Assembly: GCA_016748015.1 (NCBI GenBank)
Contig: JAAOMT010000502.1
Location: forward strand, 558,001-622,000
Direction of reading: 5' to 3'
Source: Geosiphon pyriformis uo1
Taxonomy: Eukaryota; Fungi; Glomeromycota
DNA: 64,000 nt
Of this stretch, positions 5,571-59,338 are shown one piece after another. Position 1 is the first letter of the stretch. The number at the start of each line of letters is the position of its first letter. Below the pieces are notes generated by a model. The model was not told the DNA's origin. It saw only the letters and a program-made list of their open reading frames with translations, and made no database searches. Position numbers and translations under genes: made by a program.

Positions 5571-5587
5571 TGGTGCTCTCTGTGAGG
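5571..5587 (+). promoter_or_regulatory. Primer binding site of A (TGGTGCTCTCTGTGAGG), probably elongator tRNA-Met
   Basis: TGG start 2 nt after the LTR; same motif in B, C, D and G. Confidence 0.85.
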
Positions 5588-5627
5588 TATAATTCTACAG
5601 AAAACCAGCACCAACAATTAATCAACA

Positions 5628-11600: not shown

Positions 11601-11875
11601 GAAGTTTAACTCCAGCTGAGAAGAATTATGGAACACCAGCATTAGAACACTTAGCAATCTATTGAACAGTCATGAAATAGAAAGAATACTTGAATCAGAG
11701 ATTTGAAATATACACTGATTACAAGAAATTGACAACAATTCAAAAACAAAAATTTGGAGATGATCAACATGCAAGATGGAAAATAGCACTATCACTATTT
11801 AATTATACAATATATTACAAAAAGGGAAAAGACAATGAAAATGCCAATGGTTTGTCGCAAAAGAGACAAATATAA
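5628..11875 (+). pseudogene. gag-PR-Cys-rich-dUTPase-RT-RNaseH polyprotein of A
   Basis: Retrotransposon gag, decayed CCHC knuckle (~7333), ILDSRS protease site, RT FCVDYRKLN and YLD(D/N), RNase H TDAS; many stops and a few frameshifts. Confidence 0.92.
9650..10040 (+). pseudogene. dut: dUTPase domain in A
   Basis: Five trimeric dUTPase motifs: AGFDL, RSSLA, GGIIDTGYVG, IAQAIF, RGIQGFG. Confidence 0.92.
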
Positions 11876-11936
11876 AAACATTTCAACCCAAAAATATAAC
11901 AAAACCAAACCAAACCCAATAAAAATATAACAAAAG

Positions 11937-13313
11937 ATGAACACACAAAAATACCAACAGCTTTAACACTATATAAATACTCAACAGTTCAAGGAGAAAT
12001 TATCTCAAAAGGAACGAAATAGCATTAAGCAACAATCAAAATATTTTATCAATCATCAAAATATACTTTACTAGAAGAATAGACAAAATTCAGATCAACC
12101 AACCAGAGTAATTACAGAGCCAGAAAAAGAAACAATACTGTTCAACATATACTCAGATCCAACAGCAAGATATTTTTACAAAGAAGCAACCATAAAAAGA
12201 ACCAGAAAAAGATACTATTGGCCATTAATGTATCCAGACATCATCTAATATGTTCAAAATTGTGATGCTTGTCAAAGAAGAAGAGAAACAAAACCCAGTA
12301 AACCATTAAGACTAATCAAAATAGGACAACCATTTGATCACATTGGAATTGACTTAGTCGGACCATTAACAATCACCAGCAGAGGCAACAGATATATTGT
12401 AATAGCTATGGACTATCTCACAAAATGGCCAGAAGCAAAAGCCATTCAAAGAGCAGATGCAGAATCCATTGCCGAATTCATTCATCAAGATTTGATTTGT
12501 CAACACGGATGTCCAAAAAAATTATTATCAGATCAAGGAACTCACTTTGTGAATAAAACATTGGCAGAATTGAGCCAGAGATTCGGAATTAAAAGACTAT
12601 TATCATCATCATATCATCCACAAACCAATGGATTAGTCAAAAAATTCAACAAAACATTGTGTAAAGCAATCGCCAAAATCAGCCAAGAAAACCAGAATGA
12701 ATGGGATTTGTTTATACCATCAGTATTATTTGCTTATTAGACAATGAAGCAAGATACTACACAAGCAACATCATTTGAATTAGTATATAGTAGGACAACA
12801 ATATTACCAGTTGAGATAGAAGTAAACACATATTCAACAGAACCAATAAAAGAAAAGAATTTCCAAGAAACATTGTTAAGAAGAACATATGACTTAATAG
12901 AAACTCTAGAAAACAAATGGCGAAGAGCAGCTGACAACATACAAAAGTCACAAGAGAAACAGAAAGAAAGACATGATAATCAACTACCAAGGAAACCAGT
13001 TGAATTCAAAATTGGAGACAAAGTACTATTACATTGTACCAAAGTGGAAAAACAATGGAGTGGAAAATTTGACTCCAAATAGGATGGACCATTTCACATA
13101 AAAGAAATTTTAGGAAATAGAACTTATAAATTAAGATTGAACAGCAAAATCTTGACAAAAGCAGCACATGGAGATCAACTGAAACCATACTACAATATAG
13201 TATTACCATCTACTAATAACATTCCACAATTGGGAGTACAGAGACTATTAATCTAACCAAATAAGATTCTATGAGATTTAGAACCAATTATCATTATCAA
13301 CACAAACACATAA
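11937..13313 (+). pseudogene. Stand-alone integrase ORF of A
   Basis: Own ATG; YYWP..CDACQ zinc-binding region; GIDLVGPL, DYLTKW, SDQG, YHPQTNGLV; GPF C-terminal module. Confidence 0.9.
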
Positions 13314-13374
13314 AAGTAATCGACCAAAAAGAATATATAAAGACATGATAGACATGACAAAAGATATCAGAAAA

Positions 13375-14031
13375 ATGGAGATTACTGATAACATCCACTT
13401 ACTAGCACAACAACCATTTCAACTGATTCAACAACAGAATATAGAAATTACTATCAATCAACAAACCATTCGATACTGAGATACCAGAAAGATACCCAAA
13501 TACAAAAGTAAAAAGAAAACAGAAAACACCATCAACAAAATGGTTCTAAAAATAAAATTAGCAATTGTGAAACCAACAAGTATCACCACATATCAAGAGT
13601 TGACCAAAAAAACATGGAAATAGTGGATACACAAATTTCCAAAAAACTTCTGTTACTTTCACTTGGGATGACACTTGAATATTCAGAACTTATATATGGA
13701 TAAAACAAAACAATTATTCAATACAGCAATACTACAACAACTAGAACAATTTGTGGAAAAGAACAATTTGACCACACAAGCAAGAGCTATCTATCAGCTA
13801 CATATGGGATTTCAAGACAGACCAGAAATCTTACTTAATCCAGAATTGGACTCCATTACAATTAACCAAATGGGAAAAATAACCAACACCCAATTTGAAG
13901 AATTGCAGAACCAGATAACTCAAATAATTCTTGAAAGAGAAGTTCAAGAAATACTTAATAACAAAGAATTAAAGTTAGGAGATTTAGGAGATTTGGGAGA
14001 TTTGGGAGATTTCAATAGAGCTCAATATTAA
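13375..14031 (+). pseudogene. ORF3 of A (unknown function, not env-like)
   Basis: ~220 codons between IN and PPT; homologous in B and E; no transmembrane stretch. Confidence 0.75.
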
Positions 14032-14045
14032 AAAAGAGGGAATAA

Positions 14046-14918
14046 TATTACTCATAGAATATAGGAAATATATTAGCACATGAAATAGCCAATTAGAGGT
14101 AGCTGTAGTAAATGTGGAATTCCAGGATTCCTCTCAAGAAAAATTACAGGATTCCAAGAATTTCAGGATTCTCTATGCAAGGAATCGCAGGATTTCAGAA
14201 TTTCAGAATTCCTCTTAAAAGGAATTGCAGGATTCCAGGAATCCCAGAATTCCTGAGGTAAAGAATCAAGGAATTGAGGAATCTCAATTATGTATATATA
14301 ACAGTAGTGTTAGAAGTAGAAAAGACAGAATTCTTAGTTAGAAAATTTCTCCGTTTAGATTTTATTTAAGCAACTTTCCAAAGCACAAATATCAATAAAT
14401 AATTATTCACTATCTTAACTCACTCTTTACTATCAACATAAAATGTTGATAGTAATTAATACTTAATCACACTGGAACAATAGCTCTTGATCATGGCTAT
14501 TGATAGGATACTAATTTGTAATTGCTTTTGTTATTTTTTTTATTTTCTTTTATTTTCTTTAGTTCTGTTGTTATTTCTTTGGTTTTACTAAAATTGATTA
14601 AGGATTAAGCACTGAGATACAAACATCATAGGGACTGGTAAAAGACCCATGCAACAAGGGTAGAACATTCATAGATTTGAGGATAGCTTACTAGGAGGAT
14701 TACTGGCCACCACACTGAGAAAAAAATTTGACGAAACTGTGGTTTTGAGAAGCTACAGATAAAACTATCAATTAAATATCTGTTCATTATACAAAAAACT
14801 CAACTCTAAAACCTTCAGATACAACCAACGTACCAATATCATCAGTCTTGTCAAGATATTAAGCACCAAGTTGCAGATTTGTTATTTGATTTAAGACCCC
14901 AAATAATTATCTGTAACA
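14046..14918 (+). repeat. 3' LTR of A
   Basis: Direct repeat of 4698-5568. Confidence 0.95.
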
Positions 14919-16276
14919 ATGTTTTTATGCTTAGAGCATCTGATCAGAAACAAAAGTAAAAAAAAAAATTAATTTAAGTTGAACATAAAAATTTGTAAAT
15001 CATGTATAAGTAATTTAGTTTTGAATATTTTTTTTATTTAAGATAATATAGAAATAAAATATAGTTAAAATTAATTTAAAAGAAATATAAGATATAAGTA
15101 AAAGAATATTGGTTTTTTGTCTATTGATCTGTTTTTTCTTTTTTTGCTAAAACTACTTGTTTTTATACATATTTTTTAATTTTACAAGATTATTTTTAAT
15201 TGTTTGTTATTATTAATTATTACTTACTATTACTGTTATTGTTTTATTCTTATATACTATAATTAGTTATCTTATGTTATAACTAGTTATTTTGTGTTAT
15301 TTTATGTTATTATGTATTATTCTAAGTTATTATGTATTATTATGTATTATTTTGTATTATTACGTTTTTTCTATATTATCATATTTTAATTACGTTTTTT
15401 AATAGCTTCTAAATTGGCTTTTCTATTTAGATAATAATAGTTATTATTAATTAGGAAAGATTTAATGTGTGTAGTTAAAACTATAAAGAATTATAATGTT
15501 TAAATATTTAGAGATTGTTTTAAAACACTTCTGTTTATTTTGCTTATAAGAACAATAGCTTATAATCTAAGTAATCTATTAAAAAGAGCTAGTAAAAAAA
15601 CTTGTGTTATTAATTGGTTATTCAAAACTGGTAATAAGATTTATTATGCTGTAATTAATTTCAGATCAGAAAATAATCTGAAATCAGTCTTTTATATAAA
15701 ACCAATCTTTAATAGTGTTAAGCTTTTTTGGACTAAGTTAGATCTGATTAAATGTAAAAAGTATAGATTTTTTGAATATTTTGCTTTAAAGTGTAATACA
15801 ACTAATGTATTTACTTGTTTATTTTCAAAAATTTATAAAAAAGTTATATTAGATAAGTATTATTATTAGTTAACAAAGTTATATACTAAAAAAATATTCT
15901 TATCTTGTGTTTTGCTGTTTTTGGTAACAAATTATAGGCTCAAATAATTTTGTTAGCTTTTGTTTTTGATAATACTTTCTCTGATTTTGGCTCTGGTTTT
16001 TTTTTCTTGTTTTGTATACTGTTAATGTTTTTCTTTTTTTACTTATTAGTATTGTTAGCTAATCAGATTTTTAGTGTTTTGTGCAAAATAAATAATATAA
16101 AATTGGTTTTTTGGCTTTTATTTTTTAACTTTTTGTTTTATCTTCTTTTTCAGTTTTGGATCTTAGTTTAAATTCAAATATAATTATAAACAATTTGCAA
16201 ATTTTGTCTCTATTTCTTTTTTTAATAACAACTAATACTTCAAGTTTGAGTCAGAGCAGTTTTAGAATTTTGATAG

Positions 16277-17252
16277 TGTTATTCATAGAATTTTAGCCAT
16301 TAATTAGCATAAAATTATCTTTATAATTTCTATTATTAATTAGCATATAATAACATTATTTCAATTTATTACTTATTATTAATCAAAAACTATTAAATAT
16401 TACTATTTAATTAATAATCCAATTTGTACAAATAAAAAGTAAAATAATTAGATTATACAATACTCTAAACTATATAATATTCAAAAATTTGCTAAAATAA
16501 TAATTTGTTTACCAAAATAGCTAATAGTTTATAGAAATAACTTGTAATTTGTTAAAATATATTTTTAATTTATCAAAATTATAGCAAAAAAAAAGTTCAA
16601 GTTTATAGATTAGTATTATAATAAATTGTATAAAAAAAAAGCTTTGTTCTTTAAAAAAAAATATTTTACTTTAGAATTTTATCTTATTTTAATTTTATTT
16701 TACTCAAAATTATCTTTTATATATCTGTACAAAGAAAGTAAAAAAAATTAAATACTTTAAAAACTTAATTCCTTAAATTATTATATTTAATAATTTTTAA
16801 AATTTCAATTATTATTTTGAAATTGGTTAACTACTAATTTCAATAATTTATTAATGACTTCAGGCCTAGATAAAAAACAATTCTTTAAACAAAATTTATT
16901 TTTTTTACATTTCTTTTATTTTTCTTTCTTTTTTTTATTATTATTATTAAGATAGTCTACAGATAAAATTTCTGTAAAAAAATTGATTTTTACAGTAAAA
17001 TTATTACATATTTTAGTAAACTTCTAAATAAGTATTTCTTGAAAAAGAGTTAACTTTTAATGTAAAATAATTACATAAAATAACTAACATGAAATTGGTT
17101 TTTCTATTTATAAGTCTAGCAATTTAAATTATAAAAGATAATTTGAAGATAAATTCAGTTATTAGAAATTTACTAATTTCTAATAATTGTAAATTAACAA
17201 CAAACTAATATTAACAACATTCAAGAAAAAAACTCAAAACTCTCTGATAACA
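16277..17252 (+). repeat. Solo LTR of family F inserted in the LINE
   Basis: tgtta...taaca ends; collinear with 41427-42420; TSD ATAG/ATGG (one transition). Confidence 0.85.
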
Positions 17253-23952: not shown

Positions 23953-24630
23953 TGTTATGGTTGAAACACATAGTTTTTATTAATTATCACATATATTAGC
24001 CACTAATGTCATATAATTAGCCACCCTATTTTTAGATAGTGATCGTTGACCTGATTAATAACCTGACCATTGACTTGATCATTGACCTGATCATTGACCT
24101 GATTGTTGACTACTTTAGATAGCTATATAAGCGATGATTCCCTTAGCTGTAGAAAGACATGATCAAAGTAACGAAATAAACAATATCAATTACTTCCTCT
24201 CATAATTGCTTATTCCCCTTTCCTTATCTTCAAGTATCTACTTGTTGACATTTACATATCTTATCTTTTCCCCTTCTTGATTTGTATTTGTTAGAATTAG
24301 CCTGAGAAGCAATTGGCTTGTTCTTGTAATTCATTGAATAAAGAAACAATTGAAAAGTACAACGATACCTGTTATTGATTCTAAGAATTGCCGAGTTGAG
24401 GCATAGAATAATAGCAGCAGTGTTATCTTGTTGACAATCACGGACTATTCCTCTACCTTCAGATTTAAAAAAATATTAGCGACTGTGATTTTTATGAGAC
24501 TGATCATGCACATTAAATTCCTACTTATTTAATTTGCTCCCTTATTGTAATTCCTTCTTTGTTTATTTCCATTACCATACAATACTGTTCTCCCTTGCTA
24601 TCCGTTAGCTTGTTACTCCAACCCGTAACA
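23953..24630 (+). repeat. 5' LTR of C
   Basis: Direct repeat of 30945-31586; 12-mer (cattgacctgat) array followed by TATATAA. Confidence 0.95.
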
Positions 24631-24682
24631 TAAAAGTGGTGCTCCCTGTGAAGTTGTCAAAATTTACTTATTCCCTCATTGT

Positions 24683-26233
24683 ATGGGTGATTACTTATAT
24701 CTGCTACAGCAATCAGAAGAACACTTTGTAGTACACAACAAAAACGACCAAAGTTTCATTGAACTTAATCCTCTGCCCTTCTGCTTGATCTGCTTCCCCC
24801 TTGAAGAACAATCCAGTAGACAATTCCAAGACTTTTGGAACTGGTTCCTGAATGAGCATACAGCTGAAACCTACACAGCTTATACAACCTATTACTTTGA
24901 CTAAGCTTATTTTGAAAACGACTTTGAAGAAAGAAACAACAGTATCAATCAGCTCTTATATTCTGCAACCTTTGAACAACAGCCCCTTGATTTCGAATAT
25001 CTGAATCATCAAATCCACATTTGGATTGCTGCCCATCAAGCAACTGAAACTCCCTTTGAAACAGAAGAAGAAAGCTACCAAACTGCCTCTGTTTTTGATC
25101 TTTTATCAAGCAAATCAGACTCGTCTGCACAAACAGTTACCCCTGAACCAATGGCTAATGACCCCATGCAAGCAAACATTCTGGCCGCCCTCCAAGGTAT
25201 ACAAACTGCTCTAGGCTGAAGAAACAACACCCCAATACCATTATTTAGAGGTGATGCACAAGATCCAATTGAATGGTTGGATGACTTTGAAAGAGCTGCT
25301 ACAGCCAATCAATATAATGATGAGTACAAATTCCAAATTGTTGGTGGCTACCTTCAAGGATTCCCTGCTACCTGGTTTTCACAAGAAACAAATGCCAATG
25401 CCCAGCAAAGAATCATTAAATGGACACCAGCAAATGTGGGAGAAATCAACACTTCTTTTACTACCCAGTTTGAAAACAAGTTCAGAACCCCAATATTAAT
25501 ATCAAAATGGTGTATGAAATTGGAAAAAAGAACCCAAGGTCCTGGTGAAGTTGTAACCGAATATGCCAAAGCAATCAGAAAGTTAATCAAACAAGTAGAC
25601 ACTGGAAGAAATTAGACAGAAGAGCAGAAAATTCACTCCTTCACAAAAGGATTGAGAACTGATCTATCGTATGTTCTTTGGCCTCTTCTGGTCCTAAAAG
25701 ATAATCCCACCATGGATATGGCCATTGAATTAGCACAAAAAATTAAAGACAACCAAAGGATGCACTTGGGATCCACACTACCAGTTTTTGCTCCTGTTCC
25801 TGTCATGGCTTCTATCTCTCAAATAGCTGCTATTTCTTTTGCCACTCACACTCAAGATCCAAATGAACAGTTAATAGACAGACTCACAGCAAATCTTGCT
25901 CAGTTATTAGAACCCTTAGCCCAAGCAGTCAGAGAAAATTAGCAACCACAAAGACCCAGATTTGAACCATGCTTCAATTAGCCCCAGCAACTACCTTATC
26001 AAAGACAACAAAATCATGGCCCACCTGTATGCTATCACTGTGGATTAACTGGACATTTTTCAAGAGATTGCAACAATCCTCTACTGCCTCCACCAGTCTC
26101 CAGAAACAATGATGCTCAAAACAACAGGATCAACAACAACAATGTGCCCAACCAAAGACCCAATCATGCCAACATCAATTTCTTTGGAGAGGACCCCCTA
26201 GTTGAAGCCACTGCTTATCAGTCTTTAAACTAG
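24683..26233 (+). pseudogene. gag of C
   Basis: DPIEWLDDFERAA gag core; CYHCGLTGHFSRDC knuckle; ends at the stop directly after TTTAAAC. Confidence 0.9.
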
Positions 26234-28898
26234 TAAGCGCACCTCCAAAGGGTGAGAGTGCAAGCCAACCAGAAGAAAACCCCTTTTACACTTTTAATTT
26301 AACTGATGATAACTATGACATAGATGAATTAGCAATCAACCCCTCTGAATTTACAAGAAAGAAGAAGAAAGCCAAAGTTGATTTCGTTCTAGACCCCAAT
26401 AAAGCTTCTATATCAACTGCTAACAACAATGAGCCCCCAAAAGCCAAAGTTTTCAAGAACTCTCCAAAGTTGGAACTCCCAGAAATAGTACAAAAATCCA
26501 GTCCCTATTCTGTTGTCAAAGACCTTATAAAAACCCCAACACATATAATCTTTGGCCAATTGATGACCCATCCACAATTCAGAAAAGATCTTTACAAATT
26601 CCTGATTCCAAAGAAAAAGACACCCAAAACCAACAAATGCTCTTGCCAAGCTAGACTTGCTGACAATAGTAATGTTACTCCTCTAATTTGTAAAGCCCAA
26701 GTGGCTGGCTACTTTATTGATTTGATTCTAGACAGTGAATCATCTGTTAGTGTTATTGCCAAACACTTTCTTGAAGCAATTGGCAGAAAAATTGATGAAC
26801 CATCTACACGACCAATGACCAATGTACATGGTGATAAGAAAAAAGGGCTTGGCATAGCCAAAGCTATTCCTGTCCACATCAATGACATCAGCATTGAAAC
26901 TGATATGGAAGTGTCTGAAGCAAAAGAATACACCATCATTGTTGGCAATGAATGGCTCAAGAAAGCAAAGACTTAGCTTGATTATGAACTCTGTGAACTA
27001 ACTATCAGATGTGGTGAGAAACCCATTGTGGTTAAATGTCGCCATTAGACAACTCCCCCAGTACCCAAGCAGAGCCCAGAAGAAAATAAATCAGATGAAT
27101 CAGATGATGAAGAAAGTGAGAAAGAAGAAGAACAAGAAAAACAAGAAGAAACTGCTGAACTCGCCTATACCATCTTCACTAGTAATGGCAAACCACTGAA
27201 TAATGTCAAGGCAGATAAAAAAGGAATCATTGTCAATGGCAAGCTAATCTGCTGGCCTTATTATGACATGCTCAGAAGAACCTTTGACAGAAAGCCAGGC
27301 AAGAAAGCCAAATACAGTTATTGGTGGCATGGTCCTTATGCCTGGTGCTGGTGCGACAAACCATTGTATTCTCCTAGCAATGAATGCATGTCCTGTCTGA
27401 TCTATTACAAAGATTGGGAACCAATCAGCTTGATACTCCAAGAAGAAATAAAAAAAGTTCAAAAGTCCTTTGAAAACGAACCACCTGAAATCCAATCACT
27501 GGTTGTAGAACAAAGAGAACCCTCTCCAGAAGAAAGAAAAGTAGACATTGAAAACCTGCTGGCTAGAAACAGCCCAGTTATCTCAAAAAAAGGTGAACCT
27601 CCTGGATGTACACATGTGATACAACACACCATCATCACCAGAGAAACTCGCCCCATCTATTTGAAGCCCTATCAATTCAACCAGCACAATGATGAATTTA
27701 TAAAAAAAGAAATAACCTGAATGAAAACCCTTGGATTTATACAGGAAACCAAGAGTAAATAGGCATTCCCAGTTGTAGTGGTATCCAAGAAAGAAGGAAC
27801 CCTATGCTTTTGTGTTGACTATTGCCAATTAAATGCCATTATTGAAAGAGACATGTACTCACTTCCCAAGATTGATGCAATGCTAGACCAATTCCATGGT
27901 GCCGCTTTCTTCTCAACTATTGACTTAACTGCTGGATTCTGGCAAGTAGAGATAGATCCAGAAAGCAGAAAGAAAACTGCTTTCATCACCAAGTATGGTA
28001 CCTATGAATTCACAATTATGCCTTTTGGTCTCACAAATGCTTAATAGACAAAGTATTTGAATCAGTAAAAGAAAACTTTGTTCTAGTCTACTTGGATGAC
28101 ATAATGGTATACTCAAAAATCTGGGATGAACATCTTGAACATTTGCAAAAGGTTTTTGACCTCCTTAGAAATGCTGGTCTCAAGATCAATTCAATCAAAT
28201 CATTCTTTGGATGTCAATCCACCCAGTTCCTTGGCCATCTTATTACAAAAGATGAAATTTTTCCTGATCCAGCCAAAATTGAAAAAGTTCAAAACATTAG
28301 ACAACCAATGAATGTTCATGAACTATGCTCTTTTCTTGGTTTGGCCTCTTATTATTGCAAGTTTGTCAAGAATTTCTCCAAAATCACTGCTCTTTTCAAT
28401 CAGCTACTTAGGAAAAACATCAATTATTACTGGGGCACTTATCAACAAAAAGCATTTAAAATTCTGAAGGAAAAACTGGTTACAGAACCCATCCTTATAC
28501 AACCTAATTTGGATCAACCTTTTATCCTCCACACTGATGCATCTGGCTATGGACTTGGTGCTGTTCTTTCCCAAAAAGATAAAGATAACAGAGAACACAC
28601 CATAGCATATGCCAGTAGAACTCTCACACCAGCAGAAAGGAACTACTTAGTTACTGAGCAGAAATACTTAGCAGTAGTTTGGGCTACCAGCTACTGGGAC
28701 AAATATCTTAAAAGTGTGAAATTTTTGGTGGTAACAGATCACCAAGCTTTGGTTTAGCTATGCAACAAAAAAAACTTGGAACATAAACAGATAACTCACT
28801 GAATACTTCACTTGGATAAATTCGACTATGACATTCAATACTGCAAAGGAGCTAATCATCAAAATGCCGACGCTCTCTCCAGACTTACCATCCAGTGA
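26224..28898 (+). pseudogene. pol (PR-RT-RNaseH) of C, in the -1 frame relative to gag
   Basis: LILDSES, FCVDY, YLDD, TDAS, NADALSR, then TGA TAG TAA. Confidence 0.9.
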
Positions 28899-28963
28899 TA
28901 GTAAAACCCTCTCAAACCAAACCAACTTAATTATTTGTAACTTCCCCACAAACAAACACAATA

Positions 28964-30271
28964 ATAGACTTGGACAACTACTCTGCTTTAATGAAATTTT
29001 TGGGTAAAGGACAATATCCACTGGACTATATTCAACAGCAAAGAGAACATTTGCGCAAACAAACAAATTTCTATTTGATTCGCCAAAACCAGTTATATAA
29101 AAGAAATAGAAAAGATCTTGACCGCTCCCAGAGAGTCATTAAATTTGAAGAAAGAGAAATTGTGATCTACAATATGCACACTGATCCATTAGCTGGACAC
29201 TTTGGAAAAACAAAAACAATTCAGAAAACTTTAGCTCGTTATTATTGGCCTACTTTGGGAAAAGACATTGCTGAATACATCAAAACCTGTAATACCTGCC
29301 AAAGAAGAAAAAAACCCAATCGCAAGGAAGATATCCATCCAATCTCTGTTGGTCAACCATTTGATAGAATTGGTATAGATGTTGTTGGACCTTTAACCGT
29401 AACTCCTGATGGCAACAGATACATTATCACAGCTACCGACTATCTTACAAAGTGGGTAGAAGCAAGAGCCACCCCAGATCAAACAGCAGTCTCAATTGCC
29501 AATTTCATTTATGAAGATATTATCTGTTATCATGGCTGCCCCAAAAAACTTTTATCTGATAGAGAAAGAGCTTTTCTCAGTACACTGGTTGAAGAACTTT
29601 GCAGAAAAATGGGAATACGTCATAAACTCTCTTCCTCTTATCACCCCCAAACAAATGGCCTAGTGGAATGTTTCAATAGAACACTATGTGAAACCCTAGC
29701 CAAAACCAGTGAAAAAACCAACCTATGGGACAAAGTATTGTTTTCAGCCTTGTTTGCTTACAGAACTGTGAATCATGACATAACAAGTTATGAACCTTTT
29801 TATCTGCTCTATGGACAAATGGCAACTCTACCAATAGAAACAGATATAGAAACAATACCTTTTGAAGAAATAACAATAGGAGATTACAAAGACATTTTGC
29901 AAAGAAGACTTGGTATCATTCTTAACTCATTAGTAAAAGCACGGATAATTGCCTTTGAAAAGATAAAACAGGTCCAAGAGAAGCTCAAAAAGAAAAAGAC
30001 CTATAAAACACTTTCCTTAAGTGTTGGTGACTTAGTTTTGGAATACCATTCAGACAGAGACAATGTCTATGGTGATAAATTCTCTAGCCGGTGGAAAGGA
30101 CCCTTTATAGTCAACAAAGTTTTGAACAATGGTTCTTATATCTTACAAGATCAATATGAAACAATATTCAGTAATCGCCCTGTTCATAACAAGCAACTCA
30201 AGAAATATCACAAACGACCTGATTGGTTACCTGTTGTGATAATACTGACCCAAATGATCAGCAAAAATTAG
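28964..30271 (+). pseudogene. Stand-alone integrase ORF of C (start ATG>ATA, otherwise open for 433 codons)
   Basis: H..H..CNTC, GIDVVGP, SD, YHPQTNGLVE, GPF. Confidence 0.92.
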
Positions 30272-30318
30272 ATATAAATAAATGCACTATTCCCAAAACA
30301 GAGGTATCTTCAATCGAC

Positions 30319-30975
30319 ATGAACAATTATTTTCTGGATCAAAACATTCAAAACGCTTTCTATACTCTTCATGAATACTGGATCAAGAACTATCCAAATG
30401 CTACTCTGACTATCGGAAAACAAACCACTATAACAGACAACAGTGGAACTCACACTGTTATTAGACCAAAGAAAACAACTACCAGAAGAGAAAAAATTGG
30501 TGGCAAAATAGATAAATACCTGCTGGAAAGCATAACAGCAGCAATACTTTTACCTTCCAGCACAATTGGAAAAACAATACAAAAAATCTTGCCCATAGAC
30601 AAAAACTTGTCATATGGAAAACAACTAGAACTCTATGATTGTCTTGGTGAAATTATAGAAGACATGAAGCTCATGAAGAAAAATACTTCAGAGATACAAA
30701 TGGAAATTTTGGGCATTATACGATTGAATGTCCCAAGAGTTTTGACCATTGCTAGAAGAGCCAGAACTCTAATACAAAGATTTGGTCTCTTGGATACAAA
30801 GCTTATTTCACCTCAAGTACTATATACTCTATCCACAAAAGACTTCAACAAACTAGTTAGTTTTGAGTTAGACAAAACCCTTCACATAAACTATCCCATA
30901 AATAGTTTGATTTCGCTGGAGCTCAATCTCTTTGGAGAGGATGATGTTACGGTTGAAACACATAGTTTTTATTAA
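30319..30975 (+). CDS. ORF3 of C, intact frame running into the 3' LTR; unknown function
   Basis: Open ~218 codons from the ATG; conserved in D (57987-58642). Confidence 0.75.
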   Translation: MNNYFLDQNIQNAFYTLHEYWIKNYPNATLTIGKQTTITDNSGTHTVIRPKKTTTRREKIGGKIDKYLLESITAAILLPSSTIGKTIQKILPIDKNLSYGKQLELYDCLGEIIEDMKLMKKNTSEIQMEILGIIRLNVPRVLTIARRARTLIQRFGLLDTKLISPQVLYTLSTKDFNKLVSFELDKTLHINYPINSLISLELNLFGEDDVTVETHSFY

Positions 30976-31586
30976 TTATTACATGTATTAGCCACTGATG
31001 TCATATAATTAGCCACCCTATTTTTAGATAGTAATTATTGACCTGATCAATGACCTGACCGTTGACCATTTTAGATAGCTATATAAGCGATGATTCTCTT
31101 AACTGTAAAAAAACATGATCAAAGTAATGAAATAAACAATATCAATTACTTCCTCTCATAATCGCTTATTCCCCTTTCCTTACCTTCAAGTATCTACTTG
31201 TTGGCATTCATATACCTTATCTTTTCCCCTTTTTGATTTGTATTTGTTAGAATTAGCCTGAGAAGTAATTGGCTTGCTCTTGTAATTTATTGAATAAAGA
31301 AATGATTGAAAAGTACAATGATATCTGTTATTGATTCTAAGAATTGCCAAGTTGAGGCATAGAATAATAGCAGCAGTGTTATCTTGTTGATAATCATGGA
31401 CTATTCCTCTACCTTCAGATTTAAGAAAAGATTAGCAACTGTGATTTTTATGAGACTGATCATGCATATTGAATTCCTACTTATTCAATTTGCTCCCTTA
31501 TTGTAATTCCTTCTTTGTTTATTTCCATTACCATACAATACTGTTCTCTTTTGCTATCCGTTAGCTTGTTACTCCAACCCATAACA
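30945..31586 (+). repeat. 3' LTR of C
   Basis: Direct repeat; 36 bp shorter than the 5' LTR (three fewer 12-mers). Confidence 0.95.
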
Positions 31587-32606: not shown

Positions 32607-33489
32607 TGTTACTCATAGAAATATAAAAAATATATCAGCATAATTATTAGCCAATCAGAAGTAAGCATAGTAAAATGTGGAATTCCAGGATTTTTCTCAG
32701 GAATTGCAAGATTCCAGGAATTTCAGGATTCCCAATGAGAAATTACAGGATTCCAGAATTCCAGGATTTCTCTCAAAGAAATTGCAGGATTCCAGAAATT
32801 TCAGAATTCCTGTCATGAAGAATCGAGGAATTGAGGAATCTCAATTATGTATATATAGCAGTAGTATTAGAAACAGAAAAGACAGAATTGATACCACAGA
32901 ATTCTTAGCCTAGAAATGCAATCATTAAATAAATAATTATTTTATATCTCCATCCAATTCCCCACTATCAACCCTTTATGTTGATAGTAATTGATACTTG
33001 ACTACACTGGAACAATAGCTCTTGATTACGGCTATTGATGGGATACTAATCTGCAAATCGCCTTGGCTTATTTCTTTGTTTTCTTTATTTTTTTTTATTT
33101 TTTTTCTTTATTTTATTTTGATTTGTTGTTATATACTAATTGAGAAACGATTAAGTGCTGAGTTATTGACGTCAAGGATAGCCTGGTAAAAGACTCAGAA
33201 ATATGGGTAGGATTTTATATATTATCGGATAGCTTACCAGAAAGGCATGACTATCAGACTAAATTTGGCCATCACACTGAGAAAGAAATTGGGAAAACTC
33301 TTGAAAAATATCTCTACTATTGACACTATTGAATCTTTGTCCATTATACAAAGGACTCAACCAAAACCTTCAGATCCATCAAAACCTTCAGATACAGCAC
33401 CTGCAGAACAGCCTCAACAGAAGTAGCTTTTGAGCACCAAGTTACAGATTTGTTATTTAATTCAACAGCAGAAATAATCACCTGTAACA
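32607..33489 (+). repeat. 5' LTR of B
   Basis: Direct repeat of 51173-52055. Confidence 0.95.
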
Positions 33490-33551
33490 TTTGGTGCTCC
33501 CTGTGAGGTATAATCCTACAGAGAACCAGCACCAACAACACCAAACCAAAA

Positions 33552-36500
33552 GTGGCAGAATCAGAAAACATAAGAGCAAACCATTTAGGATTCGCAAAAT
33601 CCTTATTTCAACACTATTGTCAATACTTGGGATTAAATCACAATCATATATCTGCCGAATCAGCCTTCAACTTTTACGTCAACGAAAAGATTTTCTCTTT
33701 ATTAGGAACATCAGTGAATACTGAATCAGCAAGAGAAACTTTCTATAAAGAATTAATTCAAAACACCAACCTATCAACAAATCATAATTTTGCATCCATC
33801 ATTACTGAGATCAACAAAGAAATTGAACACCACACTCAACAAAGATATCCAATTACATACGCTAGTAAAGACAAGAGAAAATTACAAACATCAGCAGTAA
33901 TACCCAGAAAATTACAGCCACTTGCTTGGAAGAAAAACAGAGTTAAATCCCCAAGCAACCCATCCTACCACTATACACCTGGAAGTGCCATCAACATATC
34001 ATCAACTGATGTGTTCTCATCAACTGCGACATCAGCATTTGGACGATTCCCATTCCAAAGTAGACAAAGGAAAACAGAATTGTTAGGACCATATGGCAAA
34101 TACTTTGAAAGATTTAATTCGCGATCATCAACCCCATCAGGACTTTGATCACTACCGCCTCCACCAGATTTCAGAATCTCTGATCCGTGGAAAGCAGCAG
34201 AATCAGAAAATAAGGAAGAAGAATCAGAGGATCAAGAATTCACTTACCTACACCTGATCCCTGAAAACCCCAGAAGTTGAAACCCCGAACATTTAAACTC
34301 AGCAACAGTTAGAAAATCCGGAAATCAAAACTCTGAATATTTGAACACCGCCAAATCCAAGAAATCAAAACCCTGAATTAATTAATCAGCAAAACTTACC
34401 TCTGGTAATTATCGTCGATCAACTGCCAATTAATCCCATAGCTGAACCCATACAGCAGCCACTACAATTACCACCCCAACAACTACTTCAACAGCCACCA
34501 CAACTACCTAACTTAGACCCAATGGCCTATGCACCCATCACAAAACTCGACAACTTTACTGGTAAAGAAGATGATGCTCAAATATGGCTGAATGATGTAG
34601 AAAAGGCCATTGCAGCCAACGGATGGAATAACGCTCGAGCAATACAAGCCATTTCCTACTTTTTCAAGGATACTGCTGATTTATGGTATCAGAGTTTGGT
34701 TAATAAACCACAAGATTTCAATGTCTTCAAAGCGGAATTCCTAAGATACTTCAGCAACAACAATAGTATCAATCGCCTAGTTAATACATTCACCACCATG
34801 AAACAAAAAGAAACTGAAGCAGTCACCACTTACCTGGGACGCTTCTATTGAAACTTGCGCCAAATTCAAGCAATTGACGACAACTATTTCACAGCACCAC
34901 AGATACTCAACCAGTTTATCCATGGCCTACGCAGCAGCATCTTGCAACATGTACATTCATTGCATCCTGGCATGCTTCAAGACGCAGTCACATGCGCCAG
35001 AGATTTTGAATCCGCTGAGTCAGAAGCTAACCATGCCCAAGCCATTAATCTAGTAATAAACAGATTATCTGAATTGGATTCCAAATTGGAGAAGTTCAGT
35101 GAATCAATTAATAAGAGATTAGAAGGATACTTAGCTGACAATCACGCTATTTATCAGTCTCCACAATGACACAATAACCAAGAAAATTCCAATCATGGCC
35201 AAAATCAACCACGTTCATTTTCATCAACTAATCAACAGTGGCAACAAGAAATGCATATCTGCCACTATTGTGGTAACCAAGAACATATCCAAATTGACTG
35301 TTGCCAGCATTTAAATAACTAACAATCAGAAAATCAATATTAAAACCCTAATCGCTGGTTCTAAACTCTGAATCATTATCCAAATCAAAGTCAAGACCAA
35401 TATCGGAATAATTACCTGCCAATGACGCAGCAACCAATCTATCAACCACCAGTATATCAACCTCCAATTTATCAGCTGCAGCTACAAGTAATATATCAAC
35501 TGCAGCCACAAATCATCTATCAACTCCAACCAATTCAAACACCACCCCAAAACCCAGTTCAAATGACATCAGGCAATCCTCAATCCAGAGTCACTCAAAA
35601 CTGGAGATCGGCAATGGTTGTTCACCAACCAATTCTCCATTCGCTAGACCCACCATCAAGATCACGCACCTGGAATTTGGATACCAGTCGCATCCAAAAC
35701 CCAAATTTCCAACATTATTTAAGTCTCCTGGTTACCCCAGAAAATGCCACATCCAACAACACAGAATCCAATCAGCACATACCTACCAACACAATTCCAC
35801 CGGCAATCATCTTTAGCAACAAATTCTTAGCAGCCATCTTTCTTTTCGAACTCGAAGAAAACACACCAATACCATTATTCAGTGGAGCTACTCTCAAAGA
35901 GAAACTCATAACAGCAATGTACACAGATGCCAGAGTTGATGGTCACCCCATCAAACTCATCCTAGATAGTAGATCAGCTGGCAGCATAATCACAAAACAA
36001 CTCATGGATCAATTAGGTCACCGAGTTGATTGAACTGCTAGCGCCAGAATCATCACAGCCAATGGAGCGACCAAAACTCCAATTGGCAAAATTGACAACT
36101 TTTCTTTTGAAGTCAATGACATCGTGACTCCTATTAAAGTTCTAGTGATGGAAGCCACTCAATACTAAGCTCTTGTTGGTAATGACTGGCTATCCAAAGT
36201 CAATGCAACGTTAGACTAGAACACCCAGGAACTCCAGCTAATGTATCAGGGCCAACACATACATGTCCCGGCCACGTGTGGCCACTTCAAAACTCCTCCA
36301 AGAGAGAAACTATTGATCGAACTGGAGAAAAAGAAAGAAAAGCCTACTTGGAAAGCCTACCAAGTGTCGTGAATAGACAAAAAGCACAATGAACTACCGC
36401 CAATACTCTCCGGGGATGACAACAACAAGGAAAAAGGGAAACAGAAGGAAAAACTTACCTGGAAAACTGATGATCTGACATGAACTGACAACAATGAGAG

Positions 36501-39500
36501 CAAACCAATGTCAAGCTGGAAATGGAAAGAGGACAAAGAAAAGAAAGAAAAAGAAACCACCCAAACCACCACCGTTTATAACACTTACACTATACCACAA
36601 CGATCTACCTATCATTGACCTAAGCTGATATGTGTCGATTGCGGGAAGAAATTGTCGTCAATAGGCACATGTTGTGAGAATGATGAGGAATATTCAACAG
36701 CAGCTAGGTTCTATTGCCACTCATGTGTCCTTGATTGCTTTAGAAGACCAAAACGAGTAAGGAAATGGAATAATCAGCCATGCTTAGCTTGTGGAAAGAC
36801 TCTCTTGGACGAAGAGATGTGGAATGACATCCCAGAACGTAGAGGAACATGCGACATATCGTGTCAATACACAATTCTAATAAGCGACTGGGTAAGGAAA
36901 AGAACCCCAATGGAAGCAGCCTGGCGAAGAGCCGTACAGCGACTGGACAGTTGTCCACATAATGATGACAAAATTTGGCGAATGGAACTTGCAAAAATTG
37001 AAGGGGCGATGCCAGAAGAGATAAAAATGATCAAAGACAACCCCCCAGTACTTTTAGAGCTTGACAGGGACGCAGAACCCATCATAAACCTCCTGGATCT
37101 GGAACAATTCCACGAATACTACCAAAAATTAGCACCCACAAGGGAAGAACAAGAACAATGGTTAGAGCAGTTGAACACTCGACTATGTCAACACTGCCTA
37201 ATTCCCTGTGACTTCCAGTATTGTAATGAGTGTGATCTCATTTACAATCCACCACCACGCATGATCTACATGATCCTGGAAGAAGAAAAACCAATCAGCA
37301 GCTGCGCATCAGAATCAGAATTGCCAATCAATCGCGATTCAAACTCTGACAATGATGACAATAACAACGGTTCAAGTTCCATTCAAAATGGCAATGATGA
37401 CGAAAATGATTCAGACTCAGATTCAAAACCTGATTTGAACTACAAACAATACATTGCACTATCAGATCTCTCCAAGAAACAAGAGTTGAAATGGTATAGT
37501 AACAATGGAAAAGGTATTATGCCAGAACGTGCGCATGATATGGATGCAGGGTTTGATCTAAGATATCCAAGAAAAGATGCCATCAAATTAGAACTGCATT
37601 TATGCACCTGCATTGATCTGAAAATAGCACTAGAGATTTCAGCAACAACAATGGTTCAATTAGCATCTAAGAGTAGCTTAGCAAAAAAAGGGATCAATAT
37701 AAGAGGAGGAATAATTGACGCGGGATATGTAAGAAATATTATCGCTATGCTACAAAATGATTCAGAAAAGACCTATATAATAGAGCCCAATGAAAAAATA
37801 GCACAGGCAATATTTCTGCCTCTGGTTAGAATAGCTCAGTTAGTATCAGTGAGAAAAAGGGAGGAATTAGGAATAACGGCAAGAGGAATACAGGGATTTG
37901 GATCTACAGATAGAATAGATGTACCAGTTAACATGGCAGAGGAAAAAACTGTTGGCCAAGAAGAAATTATCTCAACCGGTTAAGCTATTTCTATCCCATC
38001 ATATAGCCAGTACATGTTAGCAATAGAAAGAAAGGAAAAGGAGCAAGAATAGATTTTTGAAGCGGAAGCAACCCTTTATAAATCAGGAGAAATTGAGTTG
38101 ATCAATCTCCACATACCAGCCAAAAGCTATAGCAGCATAAAAATTCCCATCTACAACAACACTGGCAATGTCATCAACATACCAAAAGGAATCACCATCG
38201 GATATCTAACCACAGAAATAGAAGACCAACCACCAAACTCCATTCCAGACTTTCCACAACTTTGTGGATATGTTGACATCACATCACAAACAATCTATAG
38301 ACGAGATGAATGTTATTTGCTCCAACCAGAACAATTGAAACAAATGAACATGGAAAACTTAGATCCACTCCAATGTATGCAGCTCAAGATGTTACTCAAC
38401 AATTTCAACAACATCTTTGCTAGTGAAAATGAGTTTGGCCGAACTAACATCATCCAACATCAGATCAAGACTGGAAATGCAATGCCAATCAAACAAAGAG
38501 CATACAGAGTACCACCAGCCAGCCACGAGATTATTTGTTAAGAAATAAACAGAATGCTTGACAACAGACTAATTCAACCATCAATGAGTCCATGGTCATT
38601 ACCAGTGGTACTCATCCAAAAGAAAAATGGAAAAATCTGGTTTTGTGTAGACTACAAAAAACTTAATGGTGTAACTCGTGGAGACAGTTATCCAACTCCA
38701 CGAATACAGAAACTATTCGATGCTTTCGGTGGGAACAAATGGTTCTCCACATTAGATTTGGACAGTAGTTACTGGCAAGTAGCCATGAATTCAGCTGACA
38801 AAGAGAAGATGGCATTTACTACTAGAGAAAGAAATTTCGAATTTGAAGTGATGCCATTCGGCTTAACCAATACCCCAGCAACTTTCCAATGGCTAATGGA
38901 AATCATTTATACTGGCTTATTGTGGAAATTAGTAGTTGTATACTTGGACGACACCAATGTATTCTCAAAGACGTTTGATGATCATCTTCATCATCTTCAA
39001 CAAGTGTTTGAAAGACTAAAAAGAGCAGAATTAAAGTTAAATGTGACGAAGTGCTTCTTTGACAAGACAGAACTCAAATTCTTGGGACACATAGTCAGCA
39101 AAGATGACATCAAAATAGATCCAGAGAAAATAGAGATAGTAAAGAACTTTCCAGTACTGACCAATGTAACAGAACTGAAATCATTCTTGGGATTTGCCAG
39201 TTACTATCATCATTTTATCAAGAACTTTTCCAAGATAACGCAGCCACTCAATCAACTATAAAACAAAAATGCAAAATATAAATGGACAGAAAATCAACAA
39301 GAAGCTTTTGATATTCTAAGGAAAAAGCTCATCCAAGCTCCAGTTCTGATCTATTCAGATTACAGCAAACCATTCATCATCACCACTGATGCATCTGGCC
39401 AAGCATTGGGAGCAGTATTATCGCAGAGAGGACTGGACAGCAGAGAACATCCAGTAGCATATGCCAGCAGAGGTTTAACACCAGCCAAAAAGAACTATGG

Positions 39501-39744
39501 AACACCAGAACAAGAACACTTACCAATATACTGGGCCATCATAAAATGGAAAGAATACTTGAGCCAGAAGTTTGAAGTATACACTGATCACAAGAGATTA
39601 ACATCACTCCAAAAACAAGAATTTGGAGATAGAAGACAGTCAAGATGGAAAATGGCACTTGCACCATACAATTATACTATACATTACAAAAAGGGAAAAG
39701 ACAATGGAAATGCTGACAGTTTATCGCGAATAAGACAAATATAA
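33552..39744 (+). pseudogene. gag-PR-Cys-rich-dUTPase-RT-RNaseH polyprotein of B
   Basis: Single frame from 34522 to 39744 interrupted by stops; ILDSRS; dUTPase ~37518-37908 (AGFDL, IIDAGY, RGIQGFGST); YLDD; TDAS. Confidence 0.93.
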
Positions 39745-39807
39745 GAACATTTCAACCCAAAAATATAATAAAACCAGAACAATACCAACAAAAAATACAA
39801 CAAAAAG

Positions 39808-41047
39808 ATGAACATACAAAAATATCAACAATTGCAACATTATCTAAACACTTAACAGTTCAAGGAGAATTTATCTCATACAGAATGAAAGAGTATCAAA
39901 CAACAATCAAAATATTTTATCACTCACCAAAATATACTTTATTGGAAAAATAGAAGGGATCCAGATCAACCAATCAGAGTAATTACAGAGCCAGAAAAAG
40001 AGACAATATTATTTAACATGCATTCAAATCCAACAGCAGGACATTTTCACAAAGAAGCAACTATGGAGAGAACTAGAAAAAGATATTATTGGCCATCAAT
40101 ATACCCAGACATCATTCAATATGTTCAAAATTGTGATGTTTGTTAGCAAAGAGGAGAAACAAGACCCAGTGAACCATTAAGACCAATCAAAGTGGGACAA
40201 CCATTTGACCGTATGGGAATTAATTTAGTTGGACCATTAACAATCACCAGTAGAGGAAACAGATACATAGCAGTAGCTATGGACTATCTCATTAAATGGC
40301 CAGAGGTGAAAGCAATTCAAAGAGCAGATGCAGAATCTGTTGCCAAATTCATTTATTAGGATTTGATTTGTCGACATGGATGTCCAAAAGAATTATTATC
40401 AGACCAAGGAACTCATTTTGTGAACAGAACATTAACAGAATTAAGCCAAAAATTCGGAATCAAGAGACTATTATCATCACTATACTATCCACAAACCAAT
40501 GGATTAGTAAAAAGATTCAACAGAACATTGTGTAAAACAATAGCCAAGCTCAGCCAAAAAAACCAGAACGATTGGGATTTGTTCATATCATCAGTACTAT
40601 TTGCTTATCGAATAATGAAACAAGATACTACACAAGCAACGCCATTCGAATTAGTATATAGGAGAATAGCAACGTTACCAGTAGAGAGAGAAATTAATAC
40701 ATATCCAGCTGAACCAATAACAGAGAAAAATTTTCAAGATCGGAGACAAAGTATTACTACATTGTACTAAAGCGGAAAAACAATGGAGCAGAAAATTTGG
40801 ACCCAAATGGGATGGACCATTTTACATAGAAGAAATTCTAGGAAATAGAGCTTACAAATTAAAATTGAATAACAAAATTTTAACCAAAGCAGCACATGGA
40901 GATCAACTGAAACCATATCACAACATCACACTACCATCTACCAGTAATATTTCACAATTAGGAGTACAGAGAATACTAATCCAACCAGATGAGATTCCAC
41001 AAGATCAGGAACCAATCATTATTATTGACAACAACACGTTAAATTGA
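39808..41047 (+). pseudogene. Stand-alone integrase ORF of B (internal deletion at ~40740)
   Basis: Own ATG after the RNase H stop; HHCC and DDE-region motifs. Confidence 0.9.
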
Positions 41048-41426
41048 TCCATCAAAAGAATATATAAAGACATAGTAGACGCGACAGAAAATATCAAAAA
41101 AATAGAAATTAAAGACAATATTCACTCACTAGCACAACAACTCTTTCAATTAATCCAACACCAGGAAATGGAGATTACAATTAATTAACAAACCATTCGA
41201 TATCAAGATACTAGAAAGACATTTCAACTCAGAACACAGAAGAAAACTGAAAATAATGTGGACAAAATCATGGCAAAAGTAAAATTAGCAATAAAAGAAT
41301 TAACAAAAGAGTCACTATATCAAAAGTTGACTAAAGAAACTTGGAATTGGTGAATACAACAATTTCCACGAAACTATTGTTATTTTTACTTGGGACAACA
41401 CATAAATATCCAGAATCTATATATGG

Positions 41427-42420: not shown

Positions 42421-42465
42421 TTTGGTGCTCTCCCATAGAAATAACACAGCAACAACAAATTCAAA

Positions 42466-51172: not shown

Positions 51173-52055
51173 TGTTACTCATAGAAATATAAGAAATATA
51201 TTAGCATAATTATTAGCCAATCAGAAGTAAGCATAGTAAAATGTGGAATTCCAGGATTTTTCTCAGGAATTGCAAGATTCCAGGAATTTCAGGATTCCCA
51301 ATGAGAAATTACAGGATTCCAGAATTCCAGGATTCCTCTCAAAGGAATTACAGGATTCCAAAAATTTCAGGATTCCTGTTGTAAAGAATCGAGAAATTAA
51401 GAAATTTCAATTATGTATATATAGCAGTAGTATTAGAAACAGAAAAGACAGAATTGATACCACAGAATTCTTAGCCTAAAAACGCAATCATCAAATAAAT
51501 AATTATTTTATATCTCCATCCAATTCCCAACTATCAACCCTTCATGTTGATAGTAATTGATACTTGACCACGCTGGAACAATAGCTCTTGATCACGGCTA
51601 TTGACGGAATACTAATCTGCAAATTGCCTTGGCTTATTTCTTTGTTTTCTTTATTTTCTTTTATTTTTTTTTTTTATTTTTTTTTTATTTGTTGTTATAT
51701 ACTAATTGAGAAACAATTAAGCACTGAGTTATTGACGTCAAAGATAGCCTGATAAAAGACCCAGAAATATGGATAGGATTTTATATATTATCAGATAGCT
51801 TACCAGAAGGGCACAACTGCCAGACTAAATCTGGCCACCATGTTGAGAAAAAAATTGAGAAAACTCTTGGAAAATATCTCTACTATCAACACTATTGAAT
51901 CTCTGTTCATTATACAAAGGACTCAACCAAAACCTTCAGATCCATCAAAACCTTCAGATACAGCACCTGCAGAACAGCCTTAATGAAAATAGCTTTTGAG
52001 CACCAAGATACAGGTTTGTTATTTAATTCAACAGCAGAAATAATCACCTGTAACA
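51173..52055 (+). repeat. 3' LTR of B
   Basis: Preceded by PPT aaaaggatggaataa. Confidence 0.95.
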
Positions 52056-52332
52056 GTGGTTATCAATTGTTGACAGTACGGACTATCCCTTTACCTTCAG
52101 ATACCCTTGTTACCTTTTAAAAAGAAAAGCAACTGAGATATTTTATGAGACTGATCTCGCACATTAAATCCATACTCATTCAATTTGCTCATTAAAGTTG
52201 AATCCCCTTTGATTATTTTCATCACTCTACAATTCTGTTTTTCCTTGCTATCTATTAGCTTGTTACTCCAATCCATAACATAAAAGTGGTGCTTCCTGTG
52301 AGGTTGTCAAAATCCACTTTGTTTCTTATTGT

Positions 52333-58642: not shown

Positions 58643-59338
58643 TTATCACATGTATTAGCTACTGATGTCATATAATTAGCCACTCTATTTTTAGATAGTG
58701 ATCATTGACTTAATTAATGACCTAATCATTGACCTGATCATTGACCTGATTAATGACCTAATTGTTGATCTGATCATTGACCTGATCATTGACCTAGTCA
58801 TTGACCTGGTTGTTGACCACTTTCAATAACTATATAAGCAATAAGTCTCTTAGCTGTAGAAAATTATCTCTTAGACAAGAATCAAATAAATAAAAATAAC
58901 AACTTTTATCTCAATCACTCTCTTATTGCTAATTTCCCTTTCCCTACCTTCAAGTATCCGAACATTTTAGGATAAAAGATTACTTGTTGGTCTTTTCCTG
59001 ATGTATATAATTGTAACATTTGAAGATTATTTGAATAAATATGACTGAAGAGCACAAGTTAATACCTGATATTGAATTCTAAGAGTGCTGACATGAGGCA
59101 TAGAATTATACCAGCAGTTATCAATTGTTGACAGTATGGACTATCCCTCTACCTTCAGATTCTCTTGTTACCTTTTGAAAAGAATAGTAACTGAGATATT
59201 TTATGAGACTAATCTCGCACATTGAATCCATACTCATTCAATTTGCTCATTGAAGTTGAATTCCCTTTGATTATTTCCATCACTTTACAATTCTGTTCTC
59301 TCTTGTTATCTGTTAGCTTGTTACTCCAACCCATAATA
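58612..59338 (+). repeat. 3' LTR of D
   Basis: Matches the split 5' LTR. Confidence 0.93.

Follow-up and report, generated by a model that had tools for sequence, protein, structure and literature searches.

Split complements of a tRNA-Met(CAT) anticodon arm in the LTRs of nested Ty3/gypsy elements: candidate sites for extended primer pairing

Introduction

Initiator tRNA-Met primes Ty1, Ty3, and most plant elements, and one fish retrovirus is reportedly annotated with a Met primer-binding site (PBS). How a retroelement chooses one tRNA, and what role the extra contacts between primer and template play, are still argued for HIV-1. In the HIV-1 initiation complex, tRNA-Lys3 is associated with the PBS, the PAS, a C-rich region, and an A-rich loop (PMC13191261). 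Of three upstream sites, one faces the T arm of the primer, one its variable loop and anticodon stem, and one its anticodon loop, while the primer 3' end lies on the PBS (PMC13191261), a layout that the elements described in this work would share. The HIV-1 contacts are short, and the choice between PAS and A-loop is isolate-dependent (PMC13191261), whereas our elements hold a perfect complement of 21 adjacent nt. They also differ from HIV-1 in being Ty3/gypsy retrotransposons, in the tRNA concerned (Met(CAT)), and in that the pairing is predicted from sequence alone.

Among fungal LTR elements, Ty1 likewise pairs with its primer at several places outside the PBS (PMC3592414). Ty1, however, is a Ty1/copia element primed by tRNA-iMet on a 10-nt PBS, with boxes 0, 1, and 2.1 at or downstream of the PBS (PMC3592414), whereas the boxes reported here lie upstream, in the LTR, and are aimed at the anticodon arm. 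Box 2.1 was not confirmed in virio (PMC3592414), and pairing beyond the PBS that is observed in vitro may be absent from particles. Ty3 has a bipartite PBS (PMC5371799), and the second site for tRNA-Lys2 in Drosophila Gypsy is described as dispensable (PMC1635307). These second sites lie at the 3' end of the RNA (PMC5371799; PMC1635307), in contrast to our boxes, whose predicted place is U5, close to a complete PBS of 17 nt. Copia and Ty5 resemble our elements in using the anticodon region, and Tf1 in pairing the PBS with its own LTR (PMC5371799), for which compare the A and B hairpin described below; the copia/Ty5 priming site abuts the LTR end and that of Tf1 pairs with the transcript 5' end (PMC5371799), and neither arrangement occurs in the window elements. 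In Candida albicans, elements are primed by Arg, iMet, Ala, Gln, and Ile tRNAs (PMC4139406).

A further parallel comes from engineered HIV-1, in which a U5 altered to match the anticodon of tRNA-Met lets the virus retain this primer (PMC1797187). Elongator tRNA-Met can therefore prime, and complementarity between U5 and the anticodon stabilizes a switched primer (PMC1797187), in laboratory mutants; the elements studied here form a natural, high-copy clade. In open-access full text we found no natural element with elongator-Met priming or with such U5 boxes. Likely novelties are a long and perfect match that takes in the entire anticodon arm, the placement of this match in U5 of a gypsy clade, and a likely elongator primer.

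Results

Nested elements of the window

The window, by which we mean the whole 64,000-nt stretch analyzed (64 kb), has a G+C content of 30% and is filled with nested LTR elements of the Ty3/gypsy type (Table 1). We found paired TG...CA LTRs, a PBS after the 5' LTR, and a purine tract before the 3' LTR. Pfam matches put gag, protease, RT, RNase H, and integrase of the window elements in Ty3/gypsy order, and the pol of C keeps that order from protease through RT and RNase H to integrase. The named RT relatives are from Entrophospora, Dentiscutata, and Rhizophagus, at about 47%-52% identity, which makes a fungus of the Glomeromycota type the likely host. Elements A, B, and E also encode a dUTPase (Pfam), whose domain lies just 5' of the protease (A, 9266-10435; B, 36619-37983; E, 45670-46965). 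The protease that follows it has its best match in the spumavirus A9 family, and E has a separate gag-linked aspartyl protease match at 44224-45162. Nesting is three-deep, with E inside B and B inside the 5' LTR of D, the B junction falling directly upstream of D's boxes. C and D are sister families, as are A and B, at a distance of about 27.7 kb.

Table 1. Coordinates of the elements, boxes, PBSs, and predicted structures in the window
Feature	Positions	Strand	Remarks
Element A	about 4696-14918		
A 3' LTR, box 1	14811..14820	+	5' LTR copy degraded; T-arm box GAACTCA 5446; PBS 5571
Element C	23953-31586		
C 5' LTR, TG...CA	23953..24630	+	93.5% identical to 3' LTR; 40/42 differences are transitions
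C 5' LTR signals	TATA 24124; AATAAA 24175, 24337	+	
T-loop box CGGACT, C 5' LTR	24441..24446	+	predicted pairing with tRNA nt 52-57, PAS-like
Box 1, C 5' LTR	24455..24464	+	complement of tRNA-Met(CAT) nt 38-47 (3' anticodon strand + variable region)
Inter-box spacer, C 5' LTR	24465..24491	+	predicted to loop out
Box 2, C 5' LTR	24492..24503	+	complement of tRNA-Met(CAT) nt 27-37/38 (5' anticodon strand + loop)
U5 strand of predicted U5-leader helix, C	24571..24583	+	pairs with 24678-24691 over first ATG; closes PBS domain
PBS of C	24637..24653	+	6 nt past LTR end; one mismatch to B/L015 form
C broken pol	26206..30271	+	protease, RT, RNase H, integrase
C 3' LTR	30945..31586	+	box 1 at 31411, box 2 at 31449; purine tract just upstream
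Element D	32125-59338		5' LTR split by element B
D 5' LTR, interrupted by B	52093..52154	+	box 1, 41-nt spacer, box 2; PBS 52287
D 3' LTR	59151..59212	+	box 1 exact; box 2 with one mismatch
Element B	32607-52055		split by element E
B 5' LTR	33353..33393	+	T-arm box GGACTCA 33353; box 1 twice (33366, 33384); no box 2
B predicted U5-PBS hairpin and PBS	33432..33508	+	33432-33440 pairs with first PBS bases; PBS 33492-33508
B 3' LTR	51919..51959	+	T-arm box; box 1 twice
Element E	about 41430-50850		
PBS of E	42423..42440	+	differs from position 9-10 on; LTR without boxes, a natural negative control
LTRs F and G	59423-61096	-	

Boxes in the LTRs

A sequence-only reading of this DNA had proposed that the C and D LTRs carry both halves of a tRNA-Met complement in order, and exact matches bore this out. 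Box 1 (ACCTTCAGAT) is exact at all six positions it gave (14811, 24455, 31411, 33366, 33384, and 52093), and three exact copies were added to its list (51932, 51950, and 59151). Box 2 (TATGAGACTGA) is likewise exact where it had been placed (24493, 31449, and 52144); the copy in the D 3' LTR, at 59202, has one mismatch. Box 1 has 11 matches in the window at ≤1 mismatch, nine of them exact, compared to a shuffle mean of 4.8 (0/100 shuffles reached 11), a count that includes LTR copies, which are non-independent. For box 2 there are four matches, a number reached by 10/100 shuffles, and box 2 alone is insignificant window-wide. Both the window pattern scan and the two-segment test described below found box 2 absent from the A and B LTRs, and box 1 is doubled in B and G.

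The spacer between the boxes is 28 nt long in C, 41 nt in D, and 8 nt in a metagenomic element, L015, described below. Since box 2 can be extended by one base 5', giving 12 pairs with tRNA nt 27-38, the split point between boxes 1 and 2 is unfixed. The proposed fold-back of the spacer was recovered in the D 3' LTR (-8.7 kcal/mol) and was weak in the D 5' LTR (-2.5 kcal/mol) and in C (0 to -1.1 kcal/mol). Farther upstream lies the T-loop box (4-7 nt), whose GGAC core is also present in the C 3', D, B, and L015 LTRs. So short a motif gains significance only from lying at a conserved distance of 8-14 nt upstream of box 1, and it is lost in the A 3', F, and G LTRs. That GAACTCA or GGACTCA precedes box 1 in the A and B LTRs, as had been suggested, is true of B; in A, the exact box 1 of the 3' LTR follows AAACTCA, and the 5' LTR has GAACTCA at 5446 with two mismatches in box 1.

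The boxes sit 105-190 nt inside the LTR. In A, B, C, and D they are downstream of TATA and AATAAA, positions from which we infer that they belong to U5 of the RNA. No reading frame runs across the boxes in C. In a DNA run (X1) covering 51720-52420, none of the 40 variable positions listed, out of 121, fell within the 41 box positions (about 9% by chance, by hand arithmetic); depth was high over box 2 and low over D's box 1. Run X3 contributed no contigs. In C and D, the motif CTCTACC overlaps the start of box 1 (window 24448-24457) and is not kept in L015; it could pair with a tRNA D loop.

Chance tests of the tRNA match

When the box 2 and box 1 complements of elements C and D are joined, they are identical to 21 adjacent nt (27-47) of natural tRNA-Met(CAT) genes, within the anticodon arm and variable region. 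The tRNA genes compared come from viral contigs, and the host's own set may differ; of nine viral-contig matches to the joined complement, ARAGORN called seven as Met(CAT), one was a gene cut at the contig end, and one was a chance split. A single 10-nt tRNA complement is expected by chance in a 400-nt AT-rich stretch, whereas two adjacent, ordered segments are not. The two-segment match was 21 nt in C, 21 nt in D, and 18 nt in L015, against dinucleotide-shuffle maxima of 16, 17, and 15 (0/300 each). and U3 and leader controls scored 0-11 against the six tRNAs carrying the matched arm. A, B, E, and F were at chance in this test (119/300 for B and 87/300 for A). Predicted binding of the arm to the box pair amounted to -21 to -27 kcal/mol over separate strands, compared to -2.7 for the E control and -13.6 for B, which has box 1 only, in co-folding of unmodified RNA and isolated segments. 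We conclude that tRNA-complementary boxes outside the PBS are real and beyond chance. ARAGORN reported 0 tRNA genes in the window, and Rfam at E ≤ 10 returned four weak, unrelated matches there.

Conservation across lineages

The RTs of A/B and C/D are 44%-52% identical, and common to both lineages are the 17-nt PBS, box 1, and the GGAC motif 8-14 nt upstream. The RTs of C and D are 80% identical, and conservation between these two is weak evidence because their U5 flanks are also largely identical. The expectation that the boxes are more conserved than their flanks was upheld across three LTR groups, and not by C versus D alone.

Metagenomes were scanned with a pattern built from the LTR end and PBS only, the boxes being unused. 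It returned seven loci, six of which are unrelated to the window and have no boxes; the sole LTR element was L015 (LTR 474-1227, with purine tract, TATA, and PBS). L015 is a relative of C and D, the only outside element found, and aligns with them at about 42% identity only in short translated stretches. It carries CGGAC, then CCTTCAGAT and TGAGACTGA separated by an 8-nt spacer, each box being 1-2 nt shorter. MAFFT misaligned these boxes, and exact-word comparison was therefore used. The 9-mer box 1 core, CCTTCAGAT, is the only word of at least 8 nt common to the C/D, A/B, and L015 LTRs; at 9 nt or more, C, D, and L015 have in common, besides the two boxes, just the TATA box and one AT-rich word in U3. 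For a 430-nt U5 with the two cores in order inside a 60-nt span, a model gave an expectation of about 2e-6, and the empirical background was one core pair in 1.2 Mb of unrelated loci. That pair, which counts against the match, is in locus L190, where 35 nt separate the 9-mers on the non-coding strand of a coding region. With L190 included, the chance of the L015 box pair is below 1 in 1,000.

Element E, with an RT about 60% identical to that of B, has a different PBS and no boxes, a single case in the expected direction, and no tRNA boxes were found for its own primer. The U5 of E has a 13-pair hairpin of its own and a tandem repeat, without Met boxes. The full two-box system is limited to C/D and L015. 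An RT query of viral contigs gave no match, and the PBS pattern had 0 matches in viral contigs and one chance match in GTDB, in a bacterial gene. The RT alignment comprised 80 loci, distant retroelements and pararetrovirus-like contigs, none of which had an LTR-end PBS of this type plus boxes. Two properties of a multipartite pairing system were found: complementarity beyond chance, measured against viral-contig tRNA-Met(CAT) genes and not the host's, and conservation across three LTR groups.

PBS and predicted RNA structure

The PBS starts with TGG and is 17 nt long. The form previously quoted (TGGTGCTCCCTGTGAGG) is exact in B (33492) and differs at one position in C (24637), D (52287), and A (5571). 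Predicted folds place a hairpin at the LTR end in all families. A long one ends the A, B, and G LTRs (5511-5579, 33432-33500, and 60270-60277), where its base, GAGCACCAA, pairs with the first PBS bases; the stems of these hairpins are kept and the loops are variable. In A and B a predicted stem of 23 pairs hides the first nine PBS bases (unpaired probability 0.1), and the complement of the PBS start is about 570-580 nt downstream of TATA. C, D, and L015 have the same PBS without this A/B-type complement.

A helix between U5 and the leader is predicted in C (24571-24691), D (52221-52341), and L015 (1176-1279), with one compensatory change in L015. Set against 300 shuffles, it is weak in C (73/300) and stronger in D (15) and L015 (3). 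The helix covers the first ATG downstream of the PBS, with which a short reading (MGD...) begins that is similar in C, D, and L015. Folds of the whole U5-PBS region were no better than shuffles in C (z -0.3) and D (z +0.6) and modestly better in B (-2.1) and L015 (-2.3).

Identity of the tRNA

Initiator tRNAs are marked by A1:U72, three G-C pairs at the base of the anticodon stem, and A54. In eukaryotes, tRNA-Ile(TAT) resembles elongator tRNA-Met in its 3' end and T arm, and it may be an alternative fit to the PBS. The arm matched by the boxes is that of a Met(CAT) tRNA without the three G-C pairs at the base of its anticodon stem; a tRNA fitting the PBS would have G1:C72, and one fitting the T-loop box U54. 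Initiator tRNA-Met does not fit, as PBS, arm, and T-loop box all depart from the initiator marks. The PBS also predicts a T stem, and GAACTCA and GGACTCA of A and B complement the 5' strand of that stem together with the T loop (nt 50-56). At position 51920, run X1 has G or A in about equal depth (A in 373,235 of 741,200 reads), and both bases pair with U55.

Among tRNA ends in viral contigs that fit the PBS pattern, 100 of 101 belong to tRNA-Met(CAT), 17 of them exactly, which is weak evidence because they come from one related phage family. These phage tRNAs have other anticodon arms, and 0/101 carry either box complement; conversely, the viral tRNAs with the box-matched arm have other acceptor stems. 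The PBS and the boxes each fit a Met(CAT) tRNA, then, matched in separate tRNAs, and a single tRNA would probably combine the two. The tRNA-Met(CAT) genes whose 3' end complements the PBS (L017-L117) are widespread in phages, often beside Leu(TAA) and Ile(TAT), and differ in the anticodon arm. Literature searches with the PBS string returned only unrelated primers or miRNAs, and no matching tRNA fragment was present in the supplements of PMC7082362 (12 files) or PMC11982788 (two files). The proposal of an elongator tRNA-Met with extended pairing is partly supported: the boxes complement a non-initiator Met(CAT) arm, are kept in L015 and across lineages with LTRs that have almost nothing else in common, and are absent from E; as a two-box system it applies to C/D and L015 only.

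Proposed mechanism and alternatives

We put the probability at roughly two in three that the boxes are sites of primer selection and initiation control, likely binding host elongator tRNA-Met at several points as the minus-strand primer. The T-loop box, box 1, and box 2 follow one another antiparallel to tRNA nt 57 to 27, and the PBS comes 130-190 nt downstream. Annealing of the tRNA 3' end to the PBS would make the T stem's 5' strand available to the GGAC/GGACTCA box. The anticodon arm would then be opened by boxes 1 and 2 in C, D, and L015, giving two coaxial helices that flank the looped-out spacer and meet at nt 36-38. We take nt 37, at this junction, to be a bulky modified A37. The region around nt 36-38 is also the intron site of eukaryotic tRNA genes (PMC10275265). 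In A and B, pairing would be confined to box 1 and the T-arm box, and could assist tRNA invasion of the hairpin predicted to hide the PBS. By analogy with the PAS, C-rich region, and A-rich loop of HIV-1, the likely roles would be primer selection or packaging and control of initiation. A more elaborate scheme is possible though doubtful: a primer-capture module of this clade, in which the 21-nt complement split at modified A37 unzips the arm of elongator tRNA-Met, diverts it from the translating pool, and licenses the hidden PBS, the module being gained or lost with the primer and perhaps descending from an antisense intron-containing tRNA gene.

The boxes might instead bind elongator tRNA-Met while another tRNA, for example Ile(TAT), serves as primer, or a second tRNA-Met might occupy them to promote packaging, link the genome dimer, or aid strand transfer. 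Second sites let the primers of Gypsy and Ty3 connect the RNA ends (PMC1635307; PMC5371799), one primer cannot use both copies of the doubled box 1 in B and G, and the primer-template evidence comes from non-host tRNAs, so that host ends could differ. Yet the boxes accompany this PBS in 3/3 LTR groups and are absent with the PBS of E (n = 1), the T-arm box fits the T stem that the PBS implies, and the order of the boxes is antiparallel and continuous along one tRNA, all of which makes separate tRNAs unlikely. Conservation for some other function (hairpin formation in the RNA, or recognition by Gag, integrase, or a host factor), with an incidental tRNA match, would account for the persistence of box 1 alone in A/B and for the pairing of box 1 with box 2, as complements of a stem must pair. 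We consider it improbable: the boxes form only a weak hairpin with each other (-2.7 to -9.9 kcal/mol), bases that fit the anticodon loop and variable region are kept even though unpaired, and 21 exact bases against one tRNA are far outside shuffles.

HIV-1 is said to have a tRNA-gene-like sequence in U3, a precedent for the idea that an ancestral LTR captured an intron-containing tRNA-Met gene in reverse, of which the boxes would be a relic and the spacer the intron, with no role in priming. The spacers of C and D (28 and 41 nt) are intron-sized, and the split is compatible with N37/N38, the eukaryotic tRNA intron site (PMC10275265), but it is equally possible at 38/39. The flanks have no D-arm or acceptor complement, ARAGORN and Rfam detect no tRNA, the spacer varies over 8-41 nt around constant boxes, and a neutral relic would not outlast the remaining U5 across lineages at 44%-52% RT identity. 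We regard a functionless relic as very unlikely; a captured tRNA gene could nevertheless be where the boxes came from. It would surprise us even more if priming did without a full-length tRNA 3' end, either from a tRNA half at a box, as in copia/Ty5, or by self-priming of A/B through U5, as in Tf1. Box 2 does end near the anticodon-loop cleavage site, and A, B, and G carry a 9-nt complement of the PBS start, with the 23-pair hairpin kept in A and B. For half-tRNA priming, the complement should directly follow the LTR end, and a start at a box 130-190 nt inside the LTR would lose the LTR end needed for integration; we disfavor it, together with Tf1-type self-priming, for which the PBS complement is about 570-580 nt past TATA in A/B, away from the expected transcript start, and absent in C/D/L015 with the same PBS. 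The PBS itself begins with TGG and runs for 17 nt, against either form of alternative priming.

If elongator tRNA-Met is indeed the primer, it would be added to the natural primers of retrotransposons, and the label "tRNA-Met" on a PBS should not default to the initiator. The box-bearing C/D/L015, the partial A/B, and the box-free sister family E offer a clean comparative and biochemical system.

Decay and abundance of the elements

LTR pairs are 90%-93.5% identical, and their differences are nearly all transitions (87/89, 57/61, 40/42, and 52/55), indicating that the element copies have decayed. The F and G LTRs are strongly depleted of C and G. The transition bias and C/G depletion resemble methylation- or RIP-like decay. 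An assembly gap of 617 bases (49781-50397) lies within the 3' LTR of E, and several spurious long ORFs result from it. We matched 8,846 contigs of run X1 to the single 701-nt LTR stretch 51720-52420, showing that these families are very abundant. The E family is also represented by a decayed solo LTR at about 16273-17229.
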